Positions 21,826-47,903 of a DNA stretch of 64,000 nt are shown here, in pieces; position 1 is the first letter of the stretch; every line of letters starts with the position of its first letter. Below the pieces are notes generated by a model. It did not search any database, was not told where the DNA came from, and saw nothing but the letters and a program-made list of their open reading frames with translations. The translations under genes were made by a program, and so were the position numbers. This DNA is from a bacterium (GTDB lineage Bacteria > 4484-113 > JAFGCY01): NCBI GenBank assembly GCA_020440645.1, contig JAGRNR010000009.1:5092-69091 (forward strand). Direction: 5' to 3'.

Positions 21826-21851
21826 CGGGGAAGCCCCGCGAGGAGTGATAC

Positions 21852-22784: not shown

Positions 22785-22785
22785 G

Positions 22786-23097: not shown

Positions 23098-23165
23098 GAC
23101 ACAAGTTCGAAAACTGCAGGTTATAGATACTGTTGAGTTGAACCCCCGAAGAGAGGGATTTTTAT

Positions 23166-27395: not shown

Positions 27396-28061
27396 GTGCC
27401 CCTATATTACTTGACAGTGCTGGCGCTCGCCGGGTTCCTGAGTGGATCCCTGCCCTTCGGCTGGCTTGTGGCGCGGCTCGGGGGCATGGACATCCGCAAG
27501 CATGGCAGCGGCAACATCGGCATGACCAATGTCTGGCGCGTGATGGGCTGGAAAGCGGGCCTGACTGTGCTGCTGCTGGACGTGGCCAAGGGCCTGCTGC
27601 CCGTGCTGCTGGCCGGGCGCCTGATGGACACCGTCAACCCACCGGGGCTGACGATCAGTGGCCGCGCCTGGCTGCTGCTGATCACCGGGCTGGCCGCGAT
27701 CCTCGGGCATACATTCACGCCCTGGCTGAAGTTCAGGGGCGGCAAGGGTGTCGCCACCAGCCTCGGTGTGCTGATCGCGCTCTACCAGTTATGGGTGTTG
27801 GCGCCGCTTGGCGTATTCCTGCTGGCGCTGGCAATCACGCGCATGGTGAGTGTCGGCAGCATCCTCGCCGCACTGAGTGTGGGCATCCTTGCGGTGGCCG
27901 TGCCGGCACTCAGGCCCTACATGGCGTTTGGCATCCCAGTGGCTCTGCTCGTGATCTGGACGCACCGCAGCAACATCCGCCGCATCCTCGACGGCACGGA
28001 AAGCCGCGTCGGCAGCGGGAAGAAAAAGCCCGCAGCGGAGTCAACCCAGGCGGATCAGTAG
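27396..28061 (+). CDS. plsY: Glycerol-3-phosphate acyltransferase PlsY (acyl-phosphate dependent)
   Basis: MPLYYLTVLALAGFLSGSLPFGWLVARLGG…DIRKHGSGNIGMTNVWRV…LLLDVAKG…ILGHTFTPWLKFRGGKGVAT. These are the conserved PlsY motifs. 221 aa. Confidence 0.85.
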   Translation: MPLYYLTVLALAGFLSGSLPFGWLVARLGGMDIRKHGSGNIGMTNVWRVMGWKAGLTVLLLDVAKGLLPVLLAGRLMDTVNPPGLTISGRAWLLLITGLAAILGHTFTPWLKFRGGKGVATSLGVLIALYQLWVLAPLGVFLLALAITRMVSVGSILAALSVGILAVAVPALRPYMAFGIPVALLVIWTHRSNIRRILDGTESRVGSGKKKPAAESTQADQ

Positions 28062-29755
28062 ATCCCGGCGGAGTGGATCGAATCCAGCATTGCCGAATAG
28101 CCCGCTGACATATGCATCAGCCAGTTCGGATAGATGCCGAGGAAGATGATCGCAGCGCCGAGTGGCAACAGCACGATGGCCTCACGCAGCGGCACACGGC
28201 CCTTCGCCGACTCCGGTGCATCCCCCGGCAGCGTGCGCTGCAGCAGGCTGATCATGTACACCGCGCTCGTCAGCACGCCGATCACCGCCAGGGCCGAGAG
28301 GATCTGCAAAAGCAGGCTGCCGTCGATGCTGCCAACCAGCACCGTCTGCCAGCCCGGCCCGTTCTCGAACGCGCCCATTAAGCTGTACAGCTCGCCCCAG
28401 AAGCCGGCCAGCGCCGGGAAGCCCATGCCGGCGAAGGCCGCCAGCGAAAGCATGCCCGCCAGGAGCGGGGCCGCGCTGCCCAGCCCAGCGATCTCATGCA
28501 CGTTGCGTGTGCCGTAGCGCCGCTCGATGCTGTCCGCCAGCAGGAACAGCGTGGTGATGATCACGCCGTGGCCCACCATGTGGTAGATCGCGCCGGTCGT
28601 TGCCAGCGGGTTCATTGCGCTGCAGCCGAGGATGATGAAGCCCATGTGGCTGATCGAGCTGTAGGCGATCATGCGCTTGATGTCGGTCTGTACCAGCGTG
28701 ACAGCCGCGCCCCAGACGATGCCGATCACCGCCAGCGTGGCAACCACCGGGCCGATCGCGTAACCCTGGTCCGGCAGCGCCCAGTACAGCACGCGCAGGA
28801 ATGCGTATGTCCCGCTCTTGAGCATCACCGCCGCGAGGATCACCGACATTTCCGCCGGGGCCTGGGTATGGGCCGGCGGCAGCCAGGTGTGCAGCGGGAA
28901 CAGCGGTGCCTTGACGGCGAAGGCCACGAGGAAGCCGAGGAAGATCCACATCCTCAGCCAGGGCACGACATCCGTATAGCCCTCGTTCAGCAGGAAGGTT
29001 GCCAGGTTCGGGATCTGGAAGCTGTAAACGCCGGCGCTGATCACCTTGCAGATGATGAGCGACATCAGCATGAACACCGAGCCGGCCATGGTGTACACGA
29101 AGAAGCGGATCGCGGCGCGCGCCGCCTTCTCGCGGTCCTTGCCCCAGCCGCCGATCAGCACGTACATCGGGATCAGCATCCATTCCCAGAACAGGTAGAG
29201 CAGCACGAAGTCCAGCGCCACGAAGGAGCCGATCAGGCCGACCTGCATGAACAGGGTCAGCGCGAGGAATTCCTTCACCCGCTCCGTGCGGTACCAGCCC
29301 CAGATGATGATCAGTGGCAACAGCGCACAGGTCATCAGCACCAGTGGCAATGACAGGCCGTCGATGCCGACGTCGTAGTGCACGCTGAAGCTGCGGCTCT
29401 CGCCGATCTTGATCGCCATCCATTCGATGTCCTGGCGGTACTGGAAGCCCGGGAACTCCGCCTGGAAGGGCGTGTACTGCCCGAGCGGCTTCAGGTCCTG
29501 CACGTTCTGCGAAGTGTCCGTGTATCCGGCGTAGGGCCGCCAGCTGGTTGCACTTTCGGGCAGCCCGGTCAGCAGCAGCACCGCAAACAGCAGGCTGAGC
29601 AGCGAGAACACCAGGGCCACGATCTTGATTGGCAGGATCTTCTTCTTCGGGATCAGGCAGACCAGCAGGCAGCCGACCAGCGGGGCCAGCATCATCTGGG
29701 TGATGGGGTTGCTGATCCACGAGATGAAGCCTATGAAACTCTGCGTCTGGTCCAA
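28055..29755 (-). CDS. Complex I antiporter-like subunit, NuoM/ND4-like (Mrp-type)
   Basis: 566 aa, about 14 TM. NuoM/NuoN/MrpD-type signatures (…PLHTWLPPAHTQAPAEMSVILAAVMLKSGTYAFLRV…; …WGAAVTLVQTDIKRMIAYSSISHMGFI…). Starts 1 nt after the nuoL-like stop. Convergent 7-nt overlap with plsY. Confidence 0.8.
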   Translation of the reverse strand: MDQTQSFIGFISWISNPITQMMLAPLVGCLLVCLIPKKKILPIKIVALVFSLLSLLFAVLLLTGLPESATSWRPYAGYTDTSQNVQDLKPLGQYTPFQAEFPGFQYRQDIEWMAIKIGESRSFSVHYDVGIDGLSLPLVLMTCALLPLIIIWGWYRTERVKEFLALTLFMQVGLIGSFVALDFVLLYLFWEWMLIPMYVLIGGWGKDREKAARAAIRFFVYTMAGSVFMLMSLIICKVISAGVYSFQIPNLATFLLNEGYTDVVPWLRMWIFLGFLVAFAVKAPLFPLHTWLPPAHTQAPAEMSVILAAVMLKSGTYAFLRVLYWALPDQGYAIGPVVATLAVIGIVWGAAVTLVQTDIKRMIAYSSISHMGFIILGCSAMNPLATTGAIYHMVGHGVIITTLFLLADSIERRYGTRNVHEIAGLGSAAPLLAGMLSLAAFAGMGFPALAGFWGELYSLMGAFENGPGWQTVLVGSIDGSLLLQILSALAVIGVLTSAVYMISLLQRTLPGDAPESAKGRVPLREAIVLLPLGAAIIFLGIYPNWLMHMSAGYSAMLDSIHSAGIY

Positions 29756-31918
29756 CTACTCGTACCTCCCGAGGAAGCTCTGAATGATGCGCCGCAGTGT
29801 CTCGTTGAGCGGGAAGGAGACGACAATGCACATCAGCACGGCACCCAACAGCAGCACGAACATGTAGTTCTGGATCTGCCCGTTCTGCCAGTAGCGGCCG
29901 TGCAGCCGCTTGATGATCCACCAGATCTCGCAGCACCACCAGCGGATGCCGTCGACGAAGTGCAGGTCAAGCCAGGCACTGGCATTGGCCAGCCCACGGC
30001 CGCCGCGCCCGATGCGCGTTGACAGCCAGTCGATCAGGCGGATGTCTGAAATGCCTGCAAGAATTGCGAGGAACTCGCCGAAGCCGCCCACCAGTCCCGT
30101 GAAGAAGGGCTTCAAGTACAGCCCCTCGCGGAAGAATCCGGTCACGCCTGTCAAGAGCGGGGTCGGGCTGGCCAGCCCGCGCTCCGAGGCGGAGACGAAT
30201 CCAAGCACTGCGCCGGCCAGCACCAGCACGACCGAGAGGCCGGCGGCCAGTGGTTCGAAGTTGCCTGCCCATTGCAGGTCGTGCAGCCGGCCCTCGAAAT
30301 AGGCGCGGTAGGATGGCCAGAAGGCGGCGATGCCGATGCTGCCGATGAGCGCCAGCAGGATGGAAATCACAGTCGGTCCGGCCCAGCCATTGCCTGCGGA
30401 CGCTTGCTCCGCCAGGCCATTGGCAGCCTCCTTGCCGGGGGAAGGCATCAGCCCGCTCAGCAGGCGCGCACAGTAGGCTGCGGTAAAGGGAATCGATGCG
30501 ATCAGCAGCAGCGCTCCGGCCTGCCAGTAACCCGGCATGGCGGGCATTGTGCTTGCCAGTGCGTTGCCACCGTAGTCCTGTCCGGCGCGGGACAGCAGCG
30601 CGGAGAGGATCTGGTCCTTGCCGAAGTAGCCCGCCAGCCCGATCACACCGGCCAGGCTCAGGCCGGCCGGCAGCAGGGCCAGCCAGAACAGCTGTCCGCT
30701 GGCGGGGGACTGCCTAAGGTCGTCAAAACTCGGTTCGTCGTCATTATGTGTTGCCTGGGCCTCATGCCAGCGCGCCACCACAATGCCGACCGCAAGGAAC
30801 AGCGCGGCCTTGAACCAGGCATGTGCCAGCAGCTGGAATCGCGCGGCCTCCATCGCCAGCGCCCCGCTGCCCATCACGCACAGCCCAAGCTGGCTGACCG
30901 TGCTCCAGGCCAGCAGCTTCTTCGGCTGCTGCTGGCAACAGGCCACGATCGAGCCCATGAGCATCGTCAGGCCGCCGAGCATCACCGCCCAGGCCAGCGG
31001 GGCCACGTACCAGCCGGGGTTGCCACTGTCCGCCTGCACCGGCACGACAGTTCGCCCGAACAGCAGGTCACTGGCCAACAGCGGCCCGGCCGCCACCAGA
31101 GTTGCACTGTGCAGCAGGGCACTGACCGGGGCCGGGGCCACCATCGCATCCGGCAGCCAGAATGACAGCGGCAGGAGTGCTGCCTTGCCGAGCACGGCCA
31201 GCAGGACTAATAGTCCGGCCACGATCATCCAGTTCACGGCGGACAGCTGGTCCGGTACATGCTGTGCCACCCAGCCGATGCTGACCTGGCTGAGCTGCAC
31301 CATGTGCACACCGAAGCGGCCGAAGCCGAACATGAAGATGAAGATCGCGAACAGCAGCCCGAAGTCCGTGGCGCGCGTCGTCCAGAAGGCCTGGCGCGCT
31401 GCCCGGTTGGCCTCCGGCGTGCCCTTGTGGCGGATCAGCAGGTAGCCGGCGAGGCCCATCATTTCCCAGGCGATGTACAGCAGGATCAAAGTGTCACTGA
31501 CGAGGAACAGCAGCATTGAGCCGCAGAAGAATGTCAGCAGCGCATGGAATTGCGCGGCCTTCGGGTCAGCGCGCCGCTCGCGGATTGCATACAGCAACAC
31601 CGCCACGCCGATCAGGCAGGTTGTCAGGATGAACAGCACCTGCGTGTAGTCCGCGCGCAGGGCCAGCGGGATCGGCGGGAAGGCGCGGATCTCCGTGGTG
31701 TAGCCGCTGATCCAGTTGACCATCCATACCGCGCGGCCGGTCTCGGCATCCAGTCCCGCATTGACGGCGAGCGCCATCCCGGCACTGGCCACAAGCGACA
31801 GCACGCCGAGCAGGGCCGTGACGACGGCCGGCACACGGCGCATGAGCAGGCCCGCCCCCGCCGCCAGCAGCGGCAGAAGCGCGATCAGCGGCAGCAGTCC
31901 CTGCATCTCAGGCACCAC
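29756..31918 (-). CDS. Complex I antiporter-like subunit, NuoL/ND5-like
   Basis: 720 aa. N-terminal NuoL signatures (…LFLVSDTLILLYIAWEMMGLAGYLLIRHKGTPEANRAARQAFWTTRATDFGLLFAIF…), a long polytopic body and a C-terminal region consistent with the NuoL lateral helix plus a final TM. Confidence 0.8.
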   Translation of the reverse strand: MVPEMQGLLPLIALLPLLAAGAGLLMRRVPAVVTALLGVLSLVASAGMALAVNAGLDAETGRAVWMVNWISGYTTEIRAFPPIPLALRADYTQVLFILTTCLIGVAVLLYAIRERRADPKAAQFHALLTFFCGSMLLFLVSDTLILLYIAWEMMGLAGYLLIRHKGTPEANRAARQAFWTTRATDFGLLFAIFIFMFGFGRFGVHMVQLSQVSIGWVAQHVPDQLSAVNWMIVAGLLVLLAVLGKAALLPLSFWLPDAMVAPAPVSALLHSATLVAAGPLLASDLLFGRTVVPVQADSGNPGWYVAPLAWAVMLGGLTMLMGSIVACCQQQPKKLLAWSTVSQLGLCVMGSGALAMEAARFQLLAHAWFKAALFLAVGIVVARWHEAQATHNDDEPSFDDLRQSPASGQLFWLALLPAGLSLAGVIGLAGYFGKDQILSALLSRAGQDYGGNALASTMPAMPGYWQAGALLLIASIPFTAAYCARLLSGLMPSPGKEAANGLAEQASAGNGWAGPTVISILLALIGSIGIAAFWPSYRAYFEGRLHDLQWAGNFEPLAAGLSVVLVLAGAVLGFVSASERGLASPTPLLTGVTGFFREGLYLKPFFTGLVGGFGEFLAILAGISDIRLIDWLSTRIGRGGRGLANASAWLDLHFVDGIRWWCCEIWWIIKRLHGRYWQNGQIQNYMFVLLLGAVLMCIVVSFPLNETLRRIIQSFLGRYE

Positions 31919-31953
31919 CCACCTCCTGCTGTGTCGTCGTCATCTGCAAGTCG

Positions 31954-32439
31954 TCAATCCTTCATCAGGTTGGCATCATCAAGCATGATGCTCTTCTTCA
32001 TGCGGTAGAAGGCGATGATGATCGCCAGCCCGACCGCAGCCTCAGCCGCAGCAACGATGATCACGAATATCGAGAACACCTGGCCCATGTTCGTCATCAC
32101 GGATTCCTCCGCGGTGAACGAGGCCAGGGTGGATTTCGGTCCGTAGTAGAAGTTGAACGCGCTCATGTTGATGTTGACGGCGTTGAGCATCAGCTCCAGC
32201 GCCAGCAGCATCCCGATCGCATTGCGCCGCGCGATCACGCCGTACAGCCCGAGGCAGAAGATGAACGCGCTGAGCACGAAGTACTGGTGGTAGTCCACGT
32301 TGGTGAACCACACCATCGGCGTGTCGCCACTTGAGGCGAACCACTGGCGCGAGGCGAACTCGATCGCCTGGATGATCGGCGCCAGGCCCTCGCTCGCCAG
32401 CGAGCCACCCTCGGACTGTTGCAGCAGCAGCAGTAACAT
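31954..32439 (-). CDS. NuoK/ND4L-like subunit
   Basis: ORF 31954..32652. Homology to NuoK begins at the internal Met at 32316 (MVWFTNVDYHQYFVLSAFIFCLGLYGVIARRN… ~ E. coli [27 protein letters not shown]; …GQVFSIFVIIVAAAEAAVGLAII… ~ [23 protein letters not shown]). An in-frame Met at 32439 whose ATG overlaps the nuoJ-like TGA (ATGA) would add a 41-aa non-hydrophobic N-extension. The start is therefore either 32439 or 32316. Confidence 0.7.
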   Translation of the reverse strand: MLLLLLQQSEGGSLASEGLAPIIQAIEFASRQWFASSGDTPMVWFTNVDYHQYFVLSAFIFCLGLYGVIARRNAIGMLLALELMLNAVNINMSAFNFYYGPKSTLASFTAEESVMTNMGQVFSIFVIIVAAAEAAVGLAIIIAFYRMKKSIMLDDANLMKD

Positions 32440-33485
32440 CAGTCCTTCCTCACCAGGATGATCGCGCCGAGCATCGCCATGAGCAGGAGCACGCTGGCCA
32501 CTTCGAAGGGAAGTGTGTACGTTGCCATCAGCGACCAGCCGATGGCCTGGGTATTGCTTGTCAGTACTGCCGCACTGGGCGGGAACTCGGTGTTCTGCGG
32601 GAACTGCATGAACATCCCGACGAGCGCCATGAAGCCGAACAGCATCGTGCACAAAAGCGCGGCCCAGGGGCTCAGGTCAGTGTTCTGCCTGAGCTCGGTG
32701 CCGATGATGTTCTGGCTGACCATGATGCCGAACAGGAACAGCACCATGATGCCGCCGATGTAGATGATCACCTGCACCATCGCGAGGAACTCAGCGTTGA
32801 GCAGGATGAAGTAGCCGGCCACGCCGAACAGCGAAAGGATCAGCATCAGCGCGGAGTGGAACACGTTGCGCATCGTTACGCAACCGATGCCGCCGCCGAC
32901 CACGCCCGCCGTGAACAGCCAGAAGAAGAAGTTCAGCAGCCTGAGCGCGGGCACGCTGAGTGCCAGCATGCCCCAGAAGAAGGCGATGAAGCCAACGACT
33001 GTGAGGATTGCCAGCAGGCGCCGGTGGTCATGGAAGCGGTGCAGCGAAAGCTGCACGCAGGCGATCGTGCCGCCGACCAGCCCGAGGATCAGCATATTTG
33101 AAAGGTTGACAACCAGCGGCTGGAACAGCAGGGAGCTGATCACGAACACCGCCAGGCCAGCGCTGGCTGCCACCCGCAGCAGTCCGGCCTCCGCCGGCAG
33201 GCGGTTGAACAGCATCAGGTTCAGCAGGTAGAAGCCGGCGAGCATGCTGGCGCCCACCAGGATGCGTGCGTCCAGCTGCAAGGCCGCGGACCAGTCCAGT
33301 TTTCCACCCAGCGCTGCCAGCGGGGCGGCCAGCAGCGCCACAAGCACCGCGATCCCGGCCGTTGCCAGCAGCTGGCGGAAGATGCCGTCCAGCCGGTTGA
33401 CGAGCAGTCCGGCGGCCGCCAGCAACGCGGCCAGCAGGGCCACATTGCGCAGCAGCATAAGGGCGGCGGGCAGGCTGGTTTCCAT
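32439..33485 (-). CDS. NuoJ/ND6-like subunit with a ~165 aa N-terminal polytopic extension
   Basis: The C-terminal ~180 aa align with NuoJ (TMRNVFHSALMLILSLFGVAGYFILLNAEFLAMVQVIIYIGGIMVLFLF… ~ E. coli THTNPVHALLYLIISLLAISGVFFSLGAYFAGALEIIVYAGAIMVLFVF; C-terminal …YTLPFEVASVLLLMAMLGAIILV). Canonical NuoJ is about 170-200 aa; this protein is 348 aa with 4-5 extra N-terminal TM helices. Confidence 0.7.
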   Translation of the reverse strand: METSLPAALMLLRNVALLAALLAAAGLLVNRLDGIFRQLLATAGIAVLVALLAAPLAALGGKLDWSAALQLDARILVGASMLAGFYLLNLMLFNRLPAEAGLLRVAASAGLAVFVISSLLFQPLVVNLSNMLILGLVGGTIACVQLSLHRFHDHRRLLAILTVVGFIAFFWGMLALSVPALRLLNFFFWLFTAGVVGGGIGCVTMRNVFHSALMLILSLFGVAGYFILLNAEFLAMVQVIIYIGGIMVLFLFGIMVSQNIIGTELRQNTDLSPWAALLCTMLFGFMALVGMFMQFPQNTEFPPSAAVLTSNTQAIGWSLMATYTLPFEVASVLLLMAMLGAIILVRKD

Positions 33486-34480
33486 CAGGAACTCACCTCC
33501 CCGCGTGGCCGCCTGAGCGGCAGCACCAGCGCCTCGCGATTGGCAACCGGCATCGCCCAGCGCTCCTCGAACACGACGAGCGGGGTGCCGTCCGCGCGCT
33601 TCAGTTCGCCCAGCGCGGGATCATGGTCATAGCGTCCGAGGTCAACGAACAGCACCGTCGGCTGCCCGGGGGCCTGCGCGATTGCACCGCTGCCATCGGC
33701 GGCGATGATGCGCAGCGCTTCCTCCTCAGTCAGTGAGTCGACATTCAAGAGCGGCACGCCGCGGTAGGCCGCCGGCAGCTTCGGCCGGCTGCGCGGATAG
33801 TCCTCGGTGAAGGGCTCGCTCGAAGCCATCCGGGCGGTCTCGCGGAAGCCGGTCAGCACGGAGGTGCCGTAGCGGTGCACGCGGTTGCTGAAGAACCAGA
33901 ATTGGCTGAAGCCGGTTGCAAGGTAGCTCAGGTTGAGCACGAACACCAGGAACCAGAACAGCGCCCAGAGCATGAAGTAGCCGAGCTGGAACTTGAACAC
34001 GGGGAGGCTGCCGGTCTCGCGCCAGATGGCGAAGCCCTCGCCGCTGAGCAGAAGCGTCAGGTTCGGCGTGTCGGCAATGCCCTTCACGCTCATCTTCGGG
34101 TGGATGCGGTCCAGCGGGTCGAATTCCACGATGAAGAAGAACAGGATGATCACGAACAGCAGCAGACGCCAGAGCGTGAAGTCGCGCACCATCCAGCGGC
34201 TGTACTTCACAAGCGCGCCGGATGCCCACCAGAAGAAGCCGAGAATCGCCGGCAGGGCCAGCAGCAGGCCGCTAGCAGTGAACCACATCAGAGAGTACTG
34301 CTCGGAGGGCTGCTTGGAGGCATAGTCGTCAAACAGCGCGCCGTATTTCGTGTAGACGAACACCAACGTGAACCAGGACACGGCGATGAAGCCATAGAAC
34401 TTGAACCAGTCCATCGCGGTGTAGCCGAACCAGCGCTTCGGCAGCGGATGGTGGATTGTCAGGTCATGCCCGTCAGGCAT
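33485..34480 (-). CDS. Hypothetical polytopic membrane protein encoded inside the nuo-like operon (occupies the NuoI position)
   Basis: ORF 33485..34561. Start placed at MPDGHD… (ATG 34478-34480), which overlaps the TGA of the upstream gene (ATGCCTGA). Several TM helices (WFKFYGFIAVSWFTLVFVY; MWFTASGLLLALPAILGFFWWA; LWRLLLFVIILFFFIVEF; LGYFMLWALFWFLVFVLNLSYLA) plus a ~130 aa soluble C-terminal domain. No Cys-rich ferredoxin motifs (not NuoI). Its TGA overlaps the nuoJ-like ATG (33483-33487). Confidence 0.5.
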   Translation of the reverse strand: MPDGHDLTIHHPLPKRWFGYTAMDWFKFYGFIAVSWFTLVFVYTKYGALFDDYASKQPSEQYSLMWFTASGLLLALPAILGFFWWASGALVKYSRWMVRDFTLWRLLLFVIILFFFIVEFDPLDRIHPKMSVKGIADTPNLTLLLSGEGFAIWRETGSLPVFKFQLGYFMLWALFWFLVFVLNLSYLATGFSQFWFFSNRVHRYGTSVLTGFRETARMASSEPFTEDYPRSRPKLPAAYRGVPLLNVDSLTEEEALRIIAADGSGAIAQAPGQPTVLFVDLGRYDHDPALGELKRADGTPLVVFEERWAMPVANREALVLPLRRPRGEVSS

Positions 34481-34943
34481 GCTGCACCTCCTCCACCGTT
34501 TCCGGCTCGTTGGCAGCACTGCCGCCCGCTCCTGCTGCGGCGATGTTGCGCAGCTGGGCATGGTGCCCGGGCGCCGTCACCACGAACCAGTAGAGGAAGC
34601 CGGGCAGCAACAGCAGCACCGGCCGCAGTGTGAACTGCAGTTCGTACTGCAGCCACAGCGAATACAGGCAGCCGCAGGCCGCGAAGCTCCACAGCAGGGA
34701 AGCGATGCCGGGCCGCCGCCTGAACCAGGGGTTGATCCAGGCCGCATTGCGCGCCGGCGTCAGCGGCAGCACCGCCAGCAGCAGGCCGATTGCCAGCAGG
34801 GCCAGCGGGCCGAACCACTGCGTTGTCAGCACGGGTGCCACTCCAAGCACGATGCGCAGGTACAGGCCCCAGGCCCCGGCGGCCACGAGCAGCAGCTCTC
34901 CGAGGAGATGCAGCAGGTTCTGGCTGGTTGACAGCATCCTCAT
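34473..34943 (-). CDS. Hypothetical small membrane protein (4 TM) encoded inside the nuo-like operon
   Basis: ORF 34473..35042. Start placed at the internal Met MRMLSTSQNLLHLLGELLLVAAGAWGLYL… whose ATG (34941-34943) overlaps the TGA of the nuoH-like gene (34940-34942). About 156 aa. No family recognised. Confidence 0.5.
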   Translation of the reverse strand: MRMLSTSQNLLHLLGELLLVAAGAWGLYLRIVLGVAPVLTTQWFGPLALLAIGLLLAVLPLTPARNAAWINPWFRRRPGIASLLWSFAACGCLYSLWLQYELQFTLRPVLLLLPGFLYWFVVTAPGHHAQLRNIAAAGAGGSAANEPETVEEVQHA

Positions 34944-36715
34944 CCGGTCCAGCTCACCTCCCGGCGGGGCTGCGGATGTCGGCGCTGCACGAACAGGATG
35001 CGCCAGGCCATCAGGAGGATGAACAGGCCGAAGAACAGGCACAGCACGTTGTAGCCCCAGAAGAAGGCCTTCTCGGGGACTGTCATCACCGCCAGTGCTT
35101 CAGCTGTTGTCAGCGTCTGGTACTGGGTGACGCGCTGCAGGGCGGTCACGTCGACATCGGAGACGGCCAGCTGGTTCGCGCTGAACCAGGGATGGCGGTT
35201 GACGACGCCGAGCGCGGTGGCCGCCATCACGACCACGCTGGCCGGCAGCAGGAACTTCCAGGAGAAGAACATGATCTGGTCCACGCGGATGCGCGGCATC
35301 GTGGAGCGCGCCCATATGAAGAAGAAGCACACGGCGTAGGTCTTCAGCAGGAACCAGAACAGGCTCGTCAGCCACAATCCGTCGGGGCCGAGGAACATCG
35401 GGCCCTTCCAGCCGCCGAAGAAGCAGACGGTCATGATCGCGCTGACGATGAACACGTTGGAGTACTCGGCGACATAGAACAGCGCGAAGCGCATCCCGCT
35501 GTACTCCACCAGGTAGCCGCCCAAGAGCTCGTTCTGCGCTTCCGGCAGGTCAAAGGGCGGGCGGTTGGTCTCGGCAAGGCTGACAACGAGGTAGATGATG
35601 AAGGCCGGGAACAGCGGCAGGATGCCCCAGGTCATCGTCTGGCGCTGCACGATCTCCGTCAGGTTCAGCGAACCGGCAAAGATGGCAACGCACAGCAGGC
35701 TCATCAGCATCGGGATTTCGTAGGTCAGCAGCATCGCGGCCTCGCGCATCGCGCCGACCAGTGCATATTTGTTGTTGGAGGCGTAGCCGGACATGATCAC
35801 GGCCACGAGGAACATCGCAAAGTCGGCGATGATCAGGAGCAGGCCGACATTCAGGTCCTGGATCATGTAGTAGATGATCTGCCCGTCGACAGCCGCCACG
35901 CCGAACGGGATCACCACCCAGCTCAGGAGCGCCGGCAGGTAGACGAGGATCGGCGCGATCAGGTACAGCAGCTTGTCAGCGCTGAGCGGAACGGTGTCTT
36001 CCTTGAAGAAGATCTTGATCGTGTCGTAGAAGCCCTGGCGCCAGTAGTAGCGCAGCATGTAGCTCATGTAGAGCACGAAGGCGACCACGGTGCACAGCAC
36101 GGTGAGCTGCGGCAAAAACGGGATGTGCGCCTTCGGGATGAAGCCCAGCAGGAGAGCGACGAGCATGCCACCGCAGGACGCGAGGGATGGCCAGGCCAGC
36201 AGTGACAGCAGCGTTGCCAGGAAGCGCCAGACGGAGGTCTGCGCGGCCTGCATCCGGCCGAGCGCTGGCAGGATCATCAAGCGGTTGATCAGCCCCATCA
36301 TGCCCACGGCGAAGAACAGGATGATCCAGCCGCCGAACTGTTGCCAGCCGGCGGTGCCGCCGGTCCAGTAGTTGATGCCGTACAGCAGCGCGGGCAGGCC
36401 GATCAGCACGCCGATCTGCAGGAAGATCCGCCGGAAGCGCTGCGGGGTGACCTCGCCGTACTCCTGCGGGCCGCGGCGGCCCTGCATGCGCGCCATCAGG
36501 CGGCGTTCCCAGACCTGCAGGCCGATGGTGATCATCAGCTCCAGGAGGAAGATCAGCAGGAGCGCCGTCACCAACATGATGCCGTTGGCAACCTCCGGGC
36601 TGAAGCGCAGGCCGGGCAGCGGCTCGGTGTTGAGCCAGGCGCGCATCGCCTCCCAGACGGTGCGGGCCTCGTCCATGTCGTAGCGCTGCTGCAGGATTGC
36701 CAGCATCGGGAGCAT
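34940..36715 (-). CDS. NuoH/ND1-like subunit with a ~150 aa polytopic insertion and a ~80 aa C-terminal extension
   Basis: ORF 34940..36793. Start placed at MLPMLAILQQ… whose ATG overlaps the nuoD-like TGA at 36715. NuoH motifs are present (…VWERRLMARMQGRRGP…; …DTIKIFFKEDTVP…; …ASNNKYALVGAMREAAMLLTYEI…; …RPPFDLPEAQNELLGGYLVEYSGMRFALFYVAEY…; …RIRVDQIMFFSWKFLLP…). About 150 residues with about 4 TM lie between the RRGP and IKIFFKED motifs, where E. coli NuoH has about 15 residues. Confidence 0.75.
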   Translation of the reverse strand: MLPMLAILQQRYDMDEARTVWEAMRAWLNTEPLPGLRFSPEVANGIMLVTALLLIFLLELMITIGLQVWERRLMARMQGRRGPQEYGEVTPQRFRRIFLQIGVLIGLPALLYGINYWTGGTAGWQQFGGWIILFFAVGMMGLINRLMILPALGRMQAAQTSVWRFLATLLSLLAWPSLASCGGMLVALLLGFIPKAHIPFLPQLTVLCTVVAFVLYMSYMLRYYWRQGFYDTIKIFFKEDTVPLSADKLLYLIAPILVYLPALLSWVVIPFGVAAVDGQIIYYMIQDLNVGLLLIIADFAMFLVAVIMSGYASNNKYALVGAMREAAMLLTYEIPMLMSLLCVAIFAGSLNLTEIVQRQTMTWGILPLFPAFIIYLVVSLAETNRPPFDLPEAQNELLGGYLVEYSGMRFALFYVAEYSNVFIVSAIMTVCFFGGWKGPMFLGPDGLWLTSLFWFLLKTYAVCFFFIWARSTMPRIRVDQIMFFSWKFLLPASVVVMAATALGVVNRHPWFSANQLAVSDVDVTALQRVTQYQTLTTAEALAVMTVPEKAFFWGYNVLCLFFGLFILLMAWRILFVQRRHPQPRREVSWTG

Positions 36716-37869
36716 CACTTGTCGACCTCCCCGATCATGATGTCGAGGCTGCCGTAGATCACGAACAGGTCCGCCAGCAGGTAGCCGCGGCACAGCTCGT
36801 CCAGCAGGAACAGGTGGTACAGGCTCGGCGCACGCAGGTGCATGCGGCTCGGGCGGTTGCTGCCGTCGCTGACGAGTGTCAGGCCGAGCTCGCCGCGCGG
36901 GCTCTCGACCGCCGTGTAGACCTCGCCGCGTGAGACCTGCATCGCAGCGAAGTCTGGGCTGACATCCGCCGCCCGCAGCTCGCCGTTGTCAATGTAAGCC
37001 AGGCAGTGCTCAATGATGCGCAGGCTCTCGCGCATCTCGACGAAGCGCACGCGGTAGCGGTCCAGCACATCGCCATACTCGCCGGTCGGCACATGCAGCT
37101 CCAGCTCGCCGTACATCGCATAGGGCTGGTCGCGGCGCAGGTCATGCGCGATCCCGCTGCCGCGCAGCACGGGCCCGGTGGCACCGTGCTCGAAGGCGAA
37201 CTCGGGCTCGAGCGTGCCGATCAGCTCGCTGCGGTTGACCCAGATCGCGTTGTCAGAGAAGAAGTCCTCGTATTCATCCAGCCGGCCCTGGAACCACAGG
37301 CAGAATGCCCGCACATGGCCGCTGAAGTCCTCCGGCGGGGCAGTGCGCACGCCGCCGGGCACGATCCAGCCGTGGTGGTGGCGGTGCCCGCTGAGCATCT
37401 CCAGCAGGTCGAGCAGCATCTCGCGCTCGCGCAGCGAGATGAAGATCGGGGTGTAGGCGCCGGCCTCCAGGCCGAGGTTGCCAAACCAGAACAGGTGGTT
37501 GCCGATCCGGCTCAGCTCCAGCACAAGGGTGCGCAGCCACTGCGCACGGGCCGGAACCGTGATCCCCTCGATGCGCTCGATGGCGTCCGCCACCAGCCAG
37601 TCCGCATTGCTGCCGGCCAGCCACTCGCAGCGGGACAACAGCCCCGCCGCCTGGGCGTAGTTGCGCTGGGTCACCAGCTGCTCCACGCCGCGGTGCATGA
37701 AGCCGACCTCCGGCGTGATGCGCTCGATCAGCTCGCCGTCCGCCTGTACCCGCAGTTCCAGCGGGCTCGGCAGGCTCGGATGCTGCGGGCCGACGGAGTA
37801 GACCAGCTTCTCGGTCAGCAGCGGGTCGCGGCGGATCTCGACACGGCGATCAGAGCTGCGCGTCATCAA
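36715..37869 (-). CDS. NuoD (49 kDa)-like subunit lacking quinone-site His/Tyr and any NiFe-binding cysteines
   Basis: GPQHPSLPSPLELRV… (canonical GPQHP.AHGV), …GFMHRGVEQL…, …RIGNHLFWFGN…, and C-terminal …YGSLDIMIGEVDK (complex-I-type ending, no CxxC). 384 aa. Overlaps the nuoC stop by ~20 nt. Confidence 0.85.
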   Translation of the reverse strand: MMTRSSDRRVEIRRDPLLTEKLVYSVGPQHPSLPSPLELRVQADGELIERITPEVGFMHRGVEQLVTQRNYAQAAGLLSRCEWLAGSNADWLVADAIERIEGITVPARAQWLRTLVLELSRIGNHLFWFGNLGLEAGAYTPIFISLREREMLLDLLEMLSGHRHHHGWIVPGGVRTAPPEDFSGHVRAFCLWFQGRLDEYEDFFSDNAIWVNRSELIGTLEPEFAFEHGATGPVLRGSGIAHDLRRDQPYAMYGELELHVPTGEYGDVLDRYRVRFVEMRESLRIIEHCLAYIDNGELRAADVSPDFAAMQVSRGEVYTAVESPRGELGLTLVSDGSNRPSRMHLRAPSLYHLFLLDELCRGYLLADLFVIYGSLDIMIGEVDK

Positions 37870-38434: not shown

Positions 38435-38656
38435 GTCCTCCCCATCCTGGCTGGATTACGGCAATCGGCATACAGGTATAAACGATCAAAAGCCCCACAG
38501 CGTTACCTTATACATACAAAATGCAAAGGCTTTTGTAATTCTAGCCGATGGGGCAGCGCTGATCACCGCCTGCAGGCAATTGGTTGAAGGGCGTGTGGGT
38601 CTGCCAGCCCAATTGTTAACAGCGGGAAAATCAAAGTAAAGTCCCGATTCAATTAG
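38435..38656. promoter_or_regulatory. AT-rich divergent intergenic region (promoters for the nuoC-led operon and the sensor-kinase unit)
   Basis: Low-GC stretch (…gtataaacgatcaaaagcc…ttatacatacaaaatgcaaaggcttttgtaattctag…gggaaaatcaaagtaaagtcccgattcaattagttgattcattatcttgcgag…) between divergent gene starts. Confidence 0.45.
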
Positions 38657-39025
38657 TTGATTCATTATCTTGCGAGCCTGGATAATTTCTATAATTCAAA
38701 TCGTCAGACCCAGTCTGTACCGGTTGAATTCAAGATTCCAGGTCAAGGCATGCCACAGCAGCATGAATTAATTACTGCAATCCTCGGACTTGGCGTGTTG
38801 TTGCTGATGATCGTGCAACGCCGCCAGCTGCGGCTCATCCCTGACTACCGCTGGCTGTTCCTCTCCTACTGCCTGATCCTGCTGGCCTGGCTGCTGACCA
38901 TTGCGGAAGATTACTGGCTGCCGGTCTACATGAACCTGCTGGAGCATATCTGTTACCTGGCCAGCGCAGCGCTGGTCGCCTGGTGGACACAGAAGTTCCT
39001 CAGAAGGGAAGCGCCACAGCAATGA
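38657..39025 (+). CDS. Small membrane protein (2-3 TM), translationally coupled to the downstream sensor kinase
   Basis: 122 aa. TM segments (LITAILGLGVLLLMIV; WLFLSYCLILLAWLLTIA; ICYLASAALVAWW). Its TGA (39023-39025) overlaps the ATG (39022-39024) of the next gene (caATGAgc). Confidence 0.5.
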   Translation: MIHYLASLDNFYNSNRQTQSVPVEFKIPGQGMPQQHELITAILGLGVLLLMIVQRRQLRLIPDYRWLFLSYCLILLAWLLTIAEDYWLPVYMNLLEHICYLASAALVAWWTQKFLRREAPQQ

Positions 39026-40836
39026 GCATGCTGCTGACGGTGTTTGACCTGCTGAGCCTGCTGGCCGTGCTGTCTGCACTGTGGCTGGCGGCAGCCAGGC
39101 GGATTGCCGGCCTGCGGCGTGACTACCTGTGGTGCCTGATCATCCTGCTGGTGGTGCTGGGTCTCAACTTCCTCAGCAACCTGCTGGACAACAGCGGGCT
39201 GAGCCCCTGGCTGGAGCGCTTCGAGGACTACCCCGGACTGCTGCAGCCGGTGTTCTGGGGCATCCTCCTGATGAGCCTGGTGCAGGACCGCGCCCTGCGC
39301 CGCACCGAGCTCTCTGAACAGCGGCTGCGCGGCCTGCTGGACGCGATGCGTGACGGGGTTGCCACTATTGACCCGGGTGGCGTGTTCCGCTTTGCCAACC
39401 CGGCGGCCGCGGAAATCCTCGGGGTTGCCCACGGCAGCCTTAGCGGCCGCAGTCTGGACGAGTTCTGGCTGGCTACCGAATCGCATACTTGCCGGATGCT
39501 GCCACATTCCCCGGGCCAGGATTACAGCGCCTACGAATGCGGCATCCGCCATGGCAGCGGCGACAGCCTCGTGCTGCTGCTGCAGGTCTCGCCGATCCCG
39601 GGCCAGCCCCGCCAGCGCCTGCTGTTCATGCATGATGTGACCCCGCTGCGCCGGGCCGAGCACAGCCTGCAGCAGGCCCAGGCCCAGCTCGGACAGGCCC
39701 AGCGGCTGGAGGCGATCGGCACGCTGGCCAGCGGCATCGCCCATGACTTCAACAACATCCTGTTCGCGATTTCCGGCAACAGCCAGATCGCGCTGGATAC
39801 TGAGGGACTGACCGTCGATGCGCGGGAGAGCCTGCGCGAGATCGACACCGCCAGCCGCCGCGCCTCCGACCTGGTGGCGCAGATCCTCAACTTCAGCCGC
39901 AGCGAGAAGAGCCGGACACGGGACCTGTTGCCACTTCCGGTTGTCAAGGAAGTGCTGCGCCTGCTGCGCTCCACCGTGCCGCCGCAGGTCAGCATCCAGC
40001 TCAGCCATGACGAATCGACGTGCCGGATCCATGCCGACCCGACCGACCTGCACCAGCTGCTGATGAACCTCTGCACCAATGCGATCCAGGAGATGGCGGT
40101 GGAGGGCGGGACGCTGCGGGTCCGGTTGGAGTGCAGCAATCCACCGCCGACACTGGCCGAGCGGGGAATGCTGCAGCCTAAACCACACCTGATGCTCAAG
40201 GTCAGTGACACGGGGGGCGGTATTCCACCGGATGCGCTGCCGCACATCTTCGAGCCCTTCTTCACGACCAAGCCAAGCGGTGAGGGCACCGGTCTAGGGC
40301 TGTTCGTTGTCAGCGGGATCGTCAAGCGCCTGCAGGGACAGATCGAGATTGACAGCGAACCGGGCCATGGCAGCAGCTTCACGGTCTGGCTGCCGCTGTC
40401 CAGCGGGGCCGCTGATGCCGACGATGCCGGGCCGGGGCAGGCCACCGGCCGCGGCCGGGGCCGGCTGCTGGTGGTTGACGACGAGCCGGCGGTCAACCGG
40501 GTGCTGGCGCTGATGCTCGGCCAGCTCGGCTACAAGGTGACAACCTATAGCGACAGCTACCGCGCGCTCAGTGAGTTCCAGACCAACCCGGAGCAGTACG
40601 ACCTGCTGCTGTGCGACATCTCGATGCCGGGCCTGCGCGGCGATGAACTGGTGAAGCGGATACGCTCCGTTCGCCCAGGCCTGCCGGTGGTGCTGTGCTC
40701 CGGCAATCCGGATGTTCTGCCTCCGGGCAGTGCAACTGAACTGGGTGTGCATGCAGTGCTTAAGAAACCGGTTGACAAGCCACAGCTGGCGGATTGCATC
40801 GCCGAGGCACTTGGCAGTAACCGTGCACAGGCCTGA
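39022..40836 (+). CDS. Hybrid sensor histidine kinase (TM sensor, PAS, HisKA, HATPase_c, C-terminal receiver)
   Basis: ORF 38983..40836. Start placed at MSMLLTVFDLL… (ATGA coupling). Two or three TM helices, PAS-like region (LLDAMRDGVATIDPGGVFRFANPAAAEILG…), H-box (LEAIGTLASGIAHDFNNIL), N/G boxes (LMNLCTNAIQEM…; DTGGGIP…FEPFFTTKPSGEGTGLGL) and a receiver (RLLVVDDEPAVNRVLALMLGQLGYKV…DLLLCDISMPGLRG). Confidence 0.85.
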   Translation: MSMLLTVFDLLSLLAVLSALWLAAARRIAGLRRDYLWCLIILLVVLGLNFLSNLLDNSGLSPWLERFEDYPGLLQPVFWGILLMSLVQDRALRRTELSEQRLRGLLDAMRDGVATIDPGGVFRFANPAAAEILGVAHGSLSGRSLDEFWLATESHTCRMLPHSPGQDYSAYECGIRHGSGDSLVLLLQVSPIPGQPRQRLLFMHDVTPLRRAEHSLQQAQAQLGQAQRLEAIGTLASGIAHDFNNILFAISGNSQIALDTEGLTVDARESLREIDTASRRASDLVAQILNFSRSEKSRTRDLLPLPVVKEVLRLLRSTVPPQVSIQLSHDESTCRIHADPTDLHQLLMNLCTNAIQEMAVEGGTLRVRLECSNPPPTLAERGMLQPKPHLMLKVSDTGGGIPPDALPHIFEPFFTTKPSGEGTGLGLFVVSGIVKRLQGQIEIDSEPGHGSSFTVWLPLSSGAADADDAGPGQATGRGRGRLLVVDDEPAVNRVLALMLGQLGYKVTTYSDSYRALSEFQTNPEQYDLLLCDISMPGLRGDELVKRIRSVRPGLPVVLCSGNPDVLPPGSATELGVHAVLKKPVDKPQLADCIAEALGSNRAQA

Positions 40837-40884
40837 CGGGCGGGCGCGTCAGTGCTTTGTGATATACATGGGGAGGAGGCAGGC

Positions 40885-41250
40885 ATGGCGAAGAAGAAGT
40901 TCGAGGATGTGGACCCGCAGGTGCTGGCGGCCTACATGAAGATGATCGGGGGCGTTGAAGGGGTCGAGGCCAAGGGGGCCGCCGCGCCGTACACCTCCCT
41001 GAATGGCAATATGTACTCCAGTATCTCGAAGTTCAACGAGATCGGCCTGCGGCTGGCGAAGGATGAGCGCGAGGCCTTCCTCGAGAAGTACGACACCCGG
41101 CTCTACCACTCCATCCCCGGATATGTGCAGCGGGAGTATGTCACCGTGCCGCCTGCACTGTTTGGCAACACACGCACTCTGCGCAGCTGGTTCCGGAAGT
41201 CCTACGACTACGTCTCATCACTGCCGGCGAAGCCCACGAAGAAGAAGTAG
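40885..41250 (+). CDS. Small soluble protein, possibly TfoX N-terminal-domain-like
   Basis: ORF 40852..41250. Likely start MAKKKFEDV…. Pattern …MIGGVEGV…LNGNMYSSIS…IGLRL…EREAFLEKY…REYVTVPPALFGNTRTLRSWFRKSYDYVSSL is loosely reminiscent of TfoX_N. Low confidence in the family. Confidence 0.4.
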   Translation: MAKKKFEDVDPQVLAAYMKMIGGVEGVEAKGAAAPYTSLNGNMYSSISKFNEIGLRLAKDEREAFLEKYDTRLYHSIPGYVQREYVTVPPALFGNTRTLRSWFRKSYDYVSSLPAKPTKKK

Positions 41251-41741
41251 CGGGAAGGATTTCGGCGCTCGCTTGTCGGCAGTAGCGGGCGCGCTTGGCG
41301 ACGCCATGGAGTGATTGCCGCGAAGCAATGAGTGATGGTGTGTTGGTCTGCAGACCAACAGGGCCCTGTGGCTCTCAAGAGCCACACTCCGCCGCGTGCG
41401 CGCAGCCACGCGGAAAGCCCCTCTGCAATGAGCAATGCGGAGCAAGCAATGAGCCCGACGACACTCATTGCCAGACTCTGCGGCTCTGCGTTCACCAATA
41501 TCGCTCCACCCCAGCCGCATTGCCAACCAAGTGCAGGCTAGCCTCAGCCCAGTCAAACTGGAGAATTGTCAACACAGAGCCACCGAGCGCACAGAGTTTT
41601 CTGATCAGCTCCAGTCCCCGCATTTCCCTGACTTCGCTGCATCCCCTCCCAATCGCGGCTGGGCCGCGCCGGTTCTTCCGGTAACCCTGACCCTTGTTCT
41701 TCAGGTTGACTGATTCACTGGGAAATCCGAGACGAGCCAGT
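41251..41741. other. ~490 bp non-coding spacer rich in palindromes/hairpins and a repeated CAATGAG heptamer
   Basis: Perfect 20-bp palindrome TGTTGGTCTGCAGACCAACA (~41338-41357). Adjacent 8+2+8 palindrome GTGGCTCT-CA-AGAGCCAC. CAATGAG occurs 3 times (…gcgaagcaatgagtgatgg…, …tctgcaatgagcaatgcgg…, …gcaagcaatgagcccgacgacactcattgcc…), the last forming a hairpin with CTCATTG. No ORF of significant length with coding character. Confidence 0.5.
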
Positions 41742-42539
41742 CTATGAATACAGAAGATCCTCAAAATCCTCCGTCAGCTCTCCATGGAAAGTAGGGTAGT
41801 CAACCCTCCGGACATTGCGCCGCCATGGTCGCGGCCCCAGCTCGCTGCTTGTAAGCAGCTTGAGGTGAAGCGGATCGACATCTGTTGCCAGGCTGCATTC
41901 CGATCCGATGATCCCGTCTTTGTCCATGAAGTCCGTGTTTGGCCAGATATTGAAACTGCGACCGGATGACGTCCGGATCGAAGTCGGATTGAAGCCCATG
42001 GCAATCTCCATGGCATTGTAGCTTTCCCTGCGGATATCCAGCGGCAGGGCAAACCTTGACTGCTCAACATGCGCTGCATCCGACAATGCAGACTCTCCCT
42101 TTTGCCATTCGGGAAGGGGCATCGAGGCACTCAGGATGACAAAGGCCTTCTCTTGCCAGACGCCCGCATGATCCCTGACACAGCATGGGAACATCAGCCA
42201 CTTCATCCGCCGTTGAAACGCCGCGAATCCCACGCTGCCAATGTTCAGCAGCAGTTCCGCAAGCACTTTCGCCGGTTTCTCCATACCGGCATCCCAGGAC
42301 CTGGCCTTATCCAGGCAGCCTGCCGGAATTCTGAGCAGAAATCCCGATGCATGATCGAGATACCAGTCGGCATTGCATCTGGTGCAGATGTGCAGGATTC
42401 CGCGTTGCCAGCTTTCCCTGCGGATGATGAGCTTGTGCAGTTTGAAGTATGGGGTTTCCTCCCGGACACTTGCAGGAGGATCAGGATCCCAGGGGAGTGA
42501 TTCCCTGACCTGACAAGGGCAGCTGGCCTTGATACTCAT
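41742..42539 (-). CDS. Hypothetical Cys-rich protein (N-terminal CxC…CxxC zinc-ribbon-like motif), third gene of the nuoA-nuoB-like operon. Lower GC than surroundings.
   Basis: 265 aa. MSIKASCPCQV…ICTRCNADW…MFPCCVRDH…. GC visibly lower (about mid-50s %) than the flanking ~65% DNA. Starts 20 nt after the nuoB-like stop on the same strand. Confidence 0.5.
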   Translation of the reverse strand: MSIKASCPCQVRESLPWDPDPPASVREETPYFKLHKLIIRRESWQRGILHICTRCNADWYLDHASGFLLRIPAGCLDKARSWDAGMEKPAKVLAELLLNIGSVGFAAFQRRMKWLMFPCCVRDHAGVWQEKAFVILSASMPLPEWQKGESALSDAAHVEQSRFALPLDIRRESYNAMEIAMGFNPTSIRTSSGRSFNIWPNTDFMDKDGIIGSECSLATDVDPLHLKLLTSSELGPRPWRRNVRRVDYPTFHGELTEDFEDLLYS

Positions 42540-42558
42540 GGTTCATGGTAATGCGATC

Positions 42559-43011
42559 CTACCGCCACGCAAACCGCTCATCCAGCGCACCCGAGAGGAT
42601 GCGCTCCCGGAGCGCGATGATGCCGTCGATCAGCTGCTCGGGCCGCGGCGGGTCGCCCGGCACATAGATGTCCACTGGTACGATGCGGTCCACTCCCCCG
42701 TCCACCGCATAGCTGCCGTCGAAGGGCGCGCCGCTGATCGCCCCCGCGCCAAACGCCATCACGAAGGCCGGGTCGGCCATCGAGGCATGCAGCCGGCGGA
42801 TCACCGGGGCCATCTTGTTGTTGACGACGCCGGCCACGATCAAAAGGTCCACCTGGCGCGGGCTGGGGCGCATCACCTCAGAGCCGAAGCGCGCGATGTC
42901 ATAGCGCGGCGAGATCGCGCTGAACAGTTCCAGCGTGGCGTAGTCCAGTCCGAGCATCAGCGGCCACAGGGAATGGGCACTGGCCTCGCGGATGAGGTCC
43001 TTCAGACCCAT
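42559..43011 (-). CDS. NuoB (PSST/20 kDa)-like subunit in which all four cysteine ligands of Fe-S cluster N2 are replaced
   Basis: …HSLWPLMLGLDYATLELFSA… (canonical …WP..FGL[A/S]CC..EMM…); …VDLLIVAGVVNNKMAPVIRRL…; …VMAFGAGAISGAPFDGSY… (canonical MG.CA.[S/N]GG…); …IVPVDIYVPGDPPRPEQL… (canonical PGCPP). Overall NuoB fold signatures are intact (ARFG.E..R.SPRQ.D; KMAP; PVD.Y.PG.PPRPE). 150 aa. Overlaps nuoA by 10 nt. Confidence 0.8.
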   Translation of the reverse strand: MGLKDLIREASAHSLWPLMLGLDYATLELFSAISPRYDIARFGSEVMRPSPRQVDLLIVAGVVNNKMAPVIRRLHASMADPAFVMAFGAGAISGAPFDGSYAVDGGVDRIVPVDIYVPGDPPRPEQLIDGIIALRERILSGALDERFAWR

Positions 43012-43400
43012 TCCAGCGCTCCCTTGCGGTAGGCATAGGCCCAGCCGACGAGCAGGATGCCGAGGAACACGAACATCTCGCCCAGTGAGGCGGCCCCGAT
43101 CGGCGTGAAGGTGATGTCGTCATTGCCGAACACCAGCAGCCGGAAAGCGGTGGCCCAGGGGAAGATGAACATGATGTCCACGTCGAACATGAGGAACACG
43201 ATCGCGAGGATGTAGAAGCGGATGTTGAAGCGCACCAGCGCATCGCCGGTGGCCTGCGCGCCGGATTCATAGCTCAGGCGCTTGAGGAAGTTCGGCCGCC
43301 GCGGACGCCACAGGTTCAGGAAAGCGAATGCCAGCCCGATCAGCACCGCCCCGCCCAGCAGGAAGAGTGCCACCCAGTTGTACTGTCCAACGGTGTTCAT
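43002..43400 (-). CDS. NuoA/ND3-like subunit
   Basis: …LSYESGAQATGDALVRFNIRFYILAIVFLMFDVDIMFIFPWAT…YRKGALEWV matches NuoA (YECG…F.[IV]RFY…A..F..FDVE..F..PWA; C-terminal KGALEW). 132 aa, 3 TM. Confidence 0.8.
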   Translation of the reverse strand: MNTVGQYNWVALFLLGGAVLIGLAFAFLNLWRPRRPNFLKRLSYESGAQATGDALVRFNIRFYILAIVFLMFDVDIMFIFPWATAFRLLVFGNDDITFTPIGAASLGEMFVFLGILLVGWAYAYRKGALEWV

Positions 43401-45553: not shown

Positions 45554-45675
45554 CTTTATTCCTCACTGCGCCCGGATACTCTCCAGCAAGCTGGAGGGGC
45601 AGCACAGAATTCTAACTGAAAGAATCACCAAACTGAGCTTCGCGGCAAGCAGGTCCCAGCTACCCCTGGCACGGT

Positions 45676-47790: not shown

Positions 47791-47903
47791 CTTTATTCCT
47801 TGAACCTGCCTGGTTCCTTATGGCAGTGCAGGAGGCTGGGAAAATTCTACTCGATCAGTCTCAATCATTGACTTTCCCAGTAAAGCAATCCGCCAGCGAT
47901 CAT

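Follow-up and report, generated by a model that had tools for sequence, protein, structure and literature searches.

A complex I-derived gene set without redox cofactor sites in a bacterium of lineage 4484-113

The stretch of DNA analyzed here (the window) is 64 kb of contig JAGRNR010000009.1 (positions 5,092-69,091; assembly GCA_020440645.1) from a bacterium of lineage 4484-113, and it encodes a complex I-like set of membrane and peripheral proteins. All of the genes are on the minus strand, in two blocks: nuoA-B (43400-42559), and nuoC-D-H, two further genes, and nuoJ-K-L-M (38434-28055). Pfam was run on every open reading frame (ORF) of at least 150 aa in the window, and E. coli proteins served as tblastn queries. 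An earlier note on this DNA had listed the same gene set at these coordinates, and Pfam matches in both blocks bear it out. The genes are as follows.

43002-43400, minus strand: nuoA-like, 132 aa, no Cys; Pfam PF00507 (E 1e-27)
42559-43011, minus strand: nuoB-like, 150 aa, no Cys; Pfam PF01058
37850-38434, minus strand: nuoC-like, 194 aa; Pfam PF00329; 20-nt overlap with nuoD
36715-37869, minus strand: nuoD-like, 384 aa; Pfam PF00346
34940-36715, minus strand: nuoH-like, 591 aa; Pfam PF00146 (E 3e-97)
34473-34943, minus strand: X150, 156 aa, about four transmembrane (TM) helices by hydrophobicity; no Pfam match
33485-34480, minus strand: NuoI homolog with an N-terminal membrane domain (I'), 331 aa, no Cys; no Pfam match
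32439-33485, minus strand: nuoJ-like, 348 aa; Pfam PF00499 on residues 199-344
31954-32439, minus strand: nuoK-like, 161 aa, start refined; Pfam PF00420
29756-31918, minus strand: nuoL-like, 720 aa; Pfam PF00361; best match canonical NuoL
28055-29755, minus strand: nuoM-like, 566 aa; Pfam PF00361 (E 9e-69); final gene of the operon

The eleven products (A, B, C, D, H, X150, I', J, K, L, and M) very probably make up one complex, although its assembly is something we infer. Neighboring genes in the C-M block touch or overlap, as D and H do in the sequence TGATG. A convergent plsY gene (27396-28061) lies directly beyond nuoM, and the operon ends with M. A weak promoter-like site (38691-38664) is located upstream of nuoC, and a promoter and terminator scan of the locus found sites no commoner than chance. 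Neither Pfam nor tblastn identified NuoE, NuoF, or NuoG within the 64 kb. NuoN was likewise not found there by Pfam, and the NuoN tblastn queries matched only the L and M genes. Absence of all four from the window had been claimed previously.

The 331-aa protein I' is a NuoI homolog fused to a membrane domain, and both of its 4Fe-4S motifs are gone. Past its N-terminal membrane domain it reads SVLTGFRET..PFT.DYP....LP..YRGVP, a match to the N-terminal part of NuoI. Comparison with canonical NuoI by hhalign gave E 7.5e-6, and an extended alignment gave E 3.7e-5 over 114 columns. In the latter, AAD-SGAI lines up with ACPxxAI, and VDLGRYDHDP with the second Cys motif; 8/8 Cys are replaced. At the level of sequence profiles, the decisive link is the hhalign match between I' and a 339-aa, Fer4-containing NuoI from a related locus, L023 (probability 98.7%, E 2.5e-16, 202 columns). 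An AlphaFold2 model of I' (pLDDT 80) had only NuoI-family proteins among its six best Foldseek matches in PDB (complex I TYKY/NDUFS8, HycF, NdhI, and an MBS subunit), and tblastn with the E. coli proteins concurs. Searching PDB sequences with the I' family profile yielded no better than E ~2 for NuoI chains; profile-profile and fold comparison were needed to see the relationship. No Cys is present in I' of 26 sequences. The earlier note was therefore wrong in regarding NuoI as absent. The two membrane proteins between H and J, which it called unknown, match no family in Pfam, but the longer of them is this NuoI homolog.

Cofactor sites have been lost from NuoB and NuoD as well. NuoB aligns with T. 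thermophilus Nqo6 (E 6e-38) and contains zero Cys. All four ligands of the iron-sulfur (Fe-S) cluster N2 are replaced (4/4), as GLDYATLE, GAGAISG, and PGDPPRPE stand where Nqo6 has GLACCAIE, GACASSG, and PGCPPRPE. These changes (Cys-Cys to Asp-Tyr, Cys to Gly, and Cys to Asp) are identical in loci L001, L002, L003, and L005. In NuoD, the quinone-site His is lost (HPSLPSP replaces HPSTHGV), and the quinone Tyr has become Trp (SRCEW replaces DRxDY). The HPSLPSP/SRCEW signature is found in 39/39 NuoD proteins of the clade described below and in 0/76 canonical NuoD proteins, while HPSTHGV and DRxDY are present in 76/76 of the canonical proteins. NuoA, NuoB, and I' are all three free of Cys, and clade alignments contain no conserved Cys or His cluster motif in any subunit. 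On present knowledge of complex I, and judging from sequence, electron transfer through the arm is excluded because the N2, N6a, N6b, and quinone ligands are gone and there is no Cys in A, B, or I'. The earlier proposals that NuoB cannot bind N2, and that the locus encodes a cofactor-less, complex I-descended machine whose driving reaction is unknown, are thus supported, and the losses in NuoB, NuoI, and NuoD are fixed across the clade. The region of NuoD residues 160-166, adjacent to the former N2 position, reads SGHRHHHGW. We considered its HRHHH as a metal site, but only the last two His are conserved across the clade, which makes it a weak lead.

In the membrane arm, alignments indicate that the functional charged residues are kept. 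NuoL has the TM5 Glu, TM7 Lys, TM8 His, TM11 Lys, and TM12 Lys-Asp, with a lateral helix of approximately canonical length. NuoM has the TM5 Glu, TM7 Lys, TM8 Lys, a His, and the TM12 Glu. From its similarity (40% identity to canonical NuoM versus 27% to NuoN), the second antiporter-like subunit is of the M type. NuoK retains both membrane Glu residues, and the NuoJ motif and the FDVD acidic motif of NuoA are also kept. The TM5-6 E-channel loop of NuoH (27 residues) is conserved in alignment with clade members and canonical NuoH.

Several subunits have gained membrane segments. NuoH is extended at both ends, with an additional TM helix in the C-terminal extension, and a membrane segment is inserted into its TM1-TM2 loop. 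NuoJ carries an N-terminal membrane extension of about 190 aa that varies between lineages, and NuoK has an N-terminal extension and a loop insertion. Extra TM helices are therefore found in H, J, and K, besides X150 and the membrane domain of I'. X150 is clade-specific: orthologs occupy the same position in L003/L004, L006, L010-L013, and L015, and a 145-aa protein of L001 matches the L003 ortholog, while X150 is missing from the L023 and L026 operons. The possibility that the added segments are a broken NuoN was rejected; the J extension, H insertion, X150, I' membrane domain, and lineage-specific small proteins have no similarity to NuoN, and the segments are also dissimilar to each other between lineages. 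Clade loci that reach the end of the operon all stop after M, as do loci of the sister-type and third lineages introduced below; a few loci are cut earlier. AT skew of the plus strand is strongly positive (0.15-0.19) at 28001-36000, exactly over the membrane-subunit genes, which is expected because hydrophobic codons on the minus strand are T-rich.

Searches with NuoD delimited a discrete clade with at least 56% identity, followed by a drop to 46% and 42% for canonical NuoD. In contigs and genomes of the clade, gene order is A-B-(x)-C-D-(x)-H-X150-I'-J-K-L-M (x, a further gene) as far as each sequence reaches, and NuoE, NuoF, NuoG, and NuoN were never present in the operon contexts examined. 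The operon is the same in 14 loci, including the closed 4.11-Mb genome CP060262.1, with proteins 37-98% identical to those of the window, and the eleven reading frames are intact in all 14. Identities between the window and distant members are 77-82% for NuoK, 73-81% for NuoA, 63-70% for the NuoJ core, 58-69% for NuoD, 65-69% for NuoB, 58-61% for NuoH, 50-55% for NuoM, 44-50% for I', and 37-46% for NuoL. The most conserved subunits are K, A, the J core, D, B, and H. The operon appears to be under purifying selection. It is also rare: the I' family comprises 43 clusters among 5.8 billion proteins, and it has 27 matches among 1.84 billion representatives and occurs in 8 GTDB species genomes. Clade records are labelled UBP7, 4484-113, or "Planctomycetales bacterium", and the literature searched held nothing on the metabolism of UBP7 or 4484-113. 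No oxidoreductase or other partner gene was common to the neighborhoods of the operons examined.

Ehr (Ech-hydrogenase-related) complexes have large subunits near group 4 [NiFe] hydrogenases and Ech-like operons (PMC7894505; PMC10284858; PMC4758237; PMC6349859). Their operons consist of EhrA-D, EhrL, and EhrS (PMC7894505), as in Geobacter GSU0739-45, and the large subunit is without catalytic metal ligands (PMC7894505; PMC10284858). The complex in the window resembles Ehr as a membrane complex of the complex I/hydrogenase superfamily lacking catalytic metal ligands in its large subunit. Its NuoD has no NiFe CxxC motifs, as in Ehr, but this is true of every NuoD and does not discriminate. Unlike Ehr, the locus follows the nuo order over eleven genes, NuoA, C, J, K, and I' among them, and its NuoD groups with complex I in a comparison where HycE was the hydrogenase and no Ehr sequence was included. 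By phmmer, NuoD scored 287 bits against complex I in PDB (E 3e-84 to 49-kDa subunits), compared to 212 for MBS, 154 for Mbh, and 114 for FHL, and it is 42-44% identical to canonical NuoD versus 28% to HycE. The earlier assignment to an Ehr type is not supported by subunit set, gene order, or NuoD score and tree; on these sequence grounds the locus is not Ehr and is a complex I derivative.

Among the closest described systems is NUO11, an 11-subunit complex I without NuoEFG (PMC4758237). Like NUO11, the window has A, B, C, D, H, I, J, K, L, and M in nuo order and its best PDB matches are complex I; as in complex I generally, the antiporter-like subunits and the E-channel have their conserved charged residues. 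Unlike NUO11, it is without the N2, N6a, and N6b ligands, the quinone His and Tyr, and NuoN, and it has the NuoI N-terminal membrane domain, X150, and the extra TM helices in H, J, and K. Complex I has three antiporter-like subunits (L, M, and N), whereas the window has L and M only. We found no description of an Fe-S-free complex I in the literature searched, the coverage of which was incomplete.

Phylogeny of NuoD was based on distance trees by neighbor-joining (NJ) with a single hydrogenase outgroup, E. coli HycE. In these trees a long stem leads to the clade, which is monophyletic with 100% bootstrap and falls with complex I NuoD. Grouping with NuoD against HycE had 100% bootstrap in the first tree; the second tree has the same grouping, for which support was not read out. 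The earlier note had set a placement within bona fide complex I against its own proposal. For ancestry, as judged by NuoD, that is the placement obtained, but it is not proof of function as an NADH/quinone enzyme. The exact sister group is unstable, as the two NJ trees, which differ in sampling, disagree. Because of this disagreement, ancestry was placed by shared architecture and per-subunit similarity.

The group nearest to the clade in the first NJ tree is represented by loci L020-L025 and has the operon A-B-C-D-H-I-J-K-L-M with no NuoN and no EFG (L023:2693-12653). Its 339-aa NuoI is fused to a membrane domain and has both CxxCxxCxxxCP motifs, its NuoB has an intact N2 motif (CCxxE...C...CP), and its NuoD has HPSTHGV and DRxDY. 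By its ligands, this type is a redox-competent complex I, and it is apparently undescribed. It shares with the clade the insertions in NuoK, NuoA, NuoM, and the NuoH C-terminus as well as long NuoL and NuoM, and it is without X150 and the NuoH TM1-2 loop insertion. For five subunits the L023 type is the closest relative outside the clade, at identities of 52% (A), 48% (H), 56% (J), 57% (K), and 44% (D). It is rare, with about 25 NuoD clusters. The sister-type loci examined come from other assemblies than those of the clade, two of them with lower GC content (54%). A sister-type NuoD protein search returned none on contigs known to carry the clade system among its best 120 matches, which is not evidence that a second, canonical nuo set is absent from those genomes.

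In a third lineage, L026-L028 (L026:6045-15753), NuoB is Cys-free (GLSEDALE, PGSPPRP) and NuoD lacks the quinone His and Tyr. Four Cys, and no more, remain in the NuoI of this lineage; by the standard 2x[4Fe-4S] ferredoxin pattern these are the predicted ligand set for one 4Fe-4S cluster. In this lineage, nuoM is followed on the same strand by genes for a secreted 320-aa protein and a FAD-dependent oxidoreductase of the DAO family. The three types form a series from fully redox-competent to cofactor-free. We are highly confident that the complex descends from a rare type of complex I in which NuoE/F/G and NuoN were already missing and NuoI was already fused to a membrane domain, and that the ligands were lost afterward.

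Intact pumps and E-channel point to gradient-driven ion translocation, and ion gradients would be the sole remaining energy source because there is no electron path. The function that we place first, with real reservation, is that of a secondary, redox-independent translocator of cations and protons that operates like Mrp. NuoL and NuoM would carry the protons, and via the conserved K/J/A/H junction this flow would be coupled to movement of a second ion, Na+ or K+. The B, C, D, and I' stub, free of cofactors, would close or gate the former quinone chamber. Which ions would be moved, and in what direction, is our conjecture. Like Mrp, a multisubunit complex, the window's complex pairs two antiporter-like subunits of the NuoL/M type with one of the NuoK type and would do without a redox cofactor; the proposed resemblance is purely functional. 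Unlike Mrp, it keeps a four-protein cytoplasmic arm (B, C, D, and I') along with NuoH, NuoA, and NuoJ. Deactive mammalian complex I acts as a Na+/H+ antiporter in which the ion domain is uncoupled from the redox domain (PMC3464577), which provides an earlier example of an uncoupled membrane domain working in antiport. There the full redox enzyme persists and the state can be reversed; in the window the disconnection is genetic and permanent.

Three observations weigh against an Mrp-like translocator. Of the seven-subunit MrpA-G set, locus ORFs had no Pfam match to the Mrp-specific families of MrpB, E, F, and G, only to the shared domains PF00361 and PF00420. The four proteins of the peripheral arm are strongly conserved, more so than NuoL (D and B, against L, in the identities given above). 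Polar residues at the former cofactor sites are invariant in the clade, including the Asp-Tyr and Asp of NuoB, the His-His and Cys-Glu-Trp of NuoD, and the Asp and Ser of I'. Conservation of the arm seems to exceed what a passive plug would need, which suggests that the former N2/quinone region still binds or does something.

A different explanation, which we consider possible but rather doubtful, is that ion gradients are coupled to an enzyme or transporter whose chemistry is new and does not involve redox. The chamber formed by B, D, H, and I' would bind a lipid-soluble molecule, a metal ion, or CO2/bicarbonate, and the membrane arm would drive, or be driven by, conversion or movement of this substrate. 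Such a role would fit the junction and peripheral subunits being the best-conserved parts. It would also fit the nature of the replacements, since ligands gave way to conserved polar residues and not to random ones (Asp-Tyr...Asp in NuoB, His164-His165 and SRCEW in NuoD, and AAD-S and VDLG in I'), and the additions of TM helices to the chamber-lining NuoH loop and of X150 in this clade only. However, no subunit has a catalytic motif or a family match for such chemistry, the neighborhoods have no substrate-related gene in common, and the polar replacements may merely fill the space left by the clusters. We give the same doubtful standing to the broader proposal that this may be a natural complex I machine without electron transfer, with a B/D/H/I' chamber rebuilt with Asp, Tyr, His, and Trp that would couple ion flow to a non-redox event.

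It is improbable that the complex is still a redox enzyme, with cofactors held by non-Cys residues or with a partner encoded elsewhere in the genome. Its relatives give this idea some standing: the L023 type keeps all Fe-S ligands and quinone residues, and the L026 lineage keeps its four Cys and has the FAD-dependent oxidoreductase two genes downstream. In addition, the gene search was confined to the 64-kb window. These points are opposed by the absence of Cys from NuoA, NuoB, and I' and of any conserved Cys/His cluster motif, and by the loss of the quinone head-group His and Tyr throughout the clade (39/39 members). Without N2, N6a, and N6b, nothing wires the chamber to the cytoplasm, and no oxidoreductase gene is conserved beside the operon. 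Least credible by far is a decaying, non-functional remnant of complex I; every cofactor site and one antiporter-like subunit have been lost, but eleven frames are intact in 14 loci at protein identities as low as 37-80%, functional charged residues are invariant, translationally coupled overlaps are kept, and the residues that took the place of the ligands are conserved too.

It is still debated how complex I lets events at its quinone site drive proton pumps up to 200 Å away. Evolution here removed all redox chemistry and tightly conserved the junction and the pumps. Should the broader proposal of a rebuilt chamber hold true, the locus would be a natural experiment on energy transmission through the complex I junction and a new class of energy converter. 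The series of a redox-competent NuoN-less type, a one-cluster type, and a type with none gives a stepwise record of a redox pump turning into something else, in effect running backward the route by which complex I is proposed to have arisen from an Mrp-like antiporter and a hydrogenase. Should the complex be an antiporter, it would show which parts of the peripheral arm the membrane arm requires; if it is not, it would have a new function.

The gap between the two gene blocks, which the earlier note had taken as 4 kb of separation, is a lineage-specific insertion. A-B-C-D-H-(x)-I'-J-K-L-M is contiguous in L001, L014, L015, L016, and L017, and the window has the same order with a split after B. 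A TfoX_N-like ORF and a hybrid sensor kinase lie between nuoB with its Cys-containing neighbor and nuoC (38983-41250). The two features that were listed with Pfam results in the gap are as follows.

41742-42539, minus strand: 265-aa soluble protein, next after nuoB, with CxC...CxxC near its N-terminus; no Pfam match
38983-40836, plus strand: hybrid sensor histidine kinase (PAS-HisKA-HATPase-REC by Pfam); an insertion, outside the complex

L011 has the kinase, but the closed genome CP060262.1 (L012), with ~98% protein identity to the window, does not have it here. Because of its absence from the same spot in so similar a genome, we interpret the kinase between the blocks as a recent insertion or deletion polymorphism. 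Contiguity of A-B-C-D in distant members, together with the missing kinase in CP060262.1, indicates that the split in the window is a local insertion. The 265-aa protein was considered as a substitute Fe-S core subunit and rejected. Called "Cys-rich" in the earlier note, it has 8 Cys in 265 aa. It is 98% identical in L012, only 22% identical in L011, and missing from other loci, so that it is confined to the closest relatives and is probably not part of the core.

Genes for plsY and a PP2C phosphatase come after nuoM in L010-L012, as in the window. About 4 kb beyond nuoM, past NHL-repeat, PP2C phosphatase, and plsY genes, are motA, motB, and a FliL-like gene (21025-24071). MotA/MotB is the flagellar stator, a consumer of ion-motive force. 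Directly upstream of nuoA are four consecutive minus-strand genes encoding PKD/PPC-domain proteins (43454-52914; 699, 498, 697, and 940 aa) that are apparently paralogous, and a 1232-aa subtilase is encoded at 53077-56775. The window also encodes two large ankyrin-repeat proteins, a kind unusual in bacteria, at 1628-4021 (797 aa) and 57978-60308 (776 aa).

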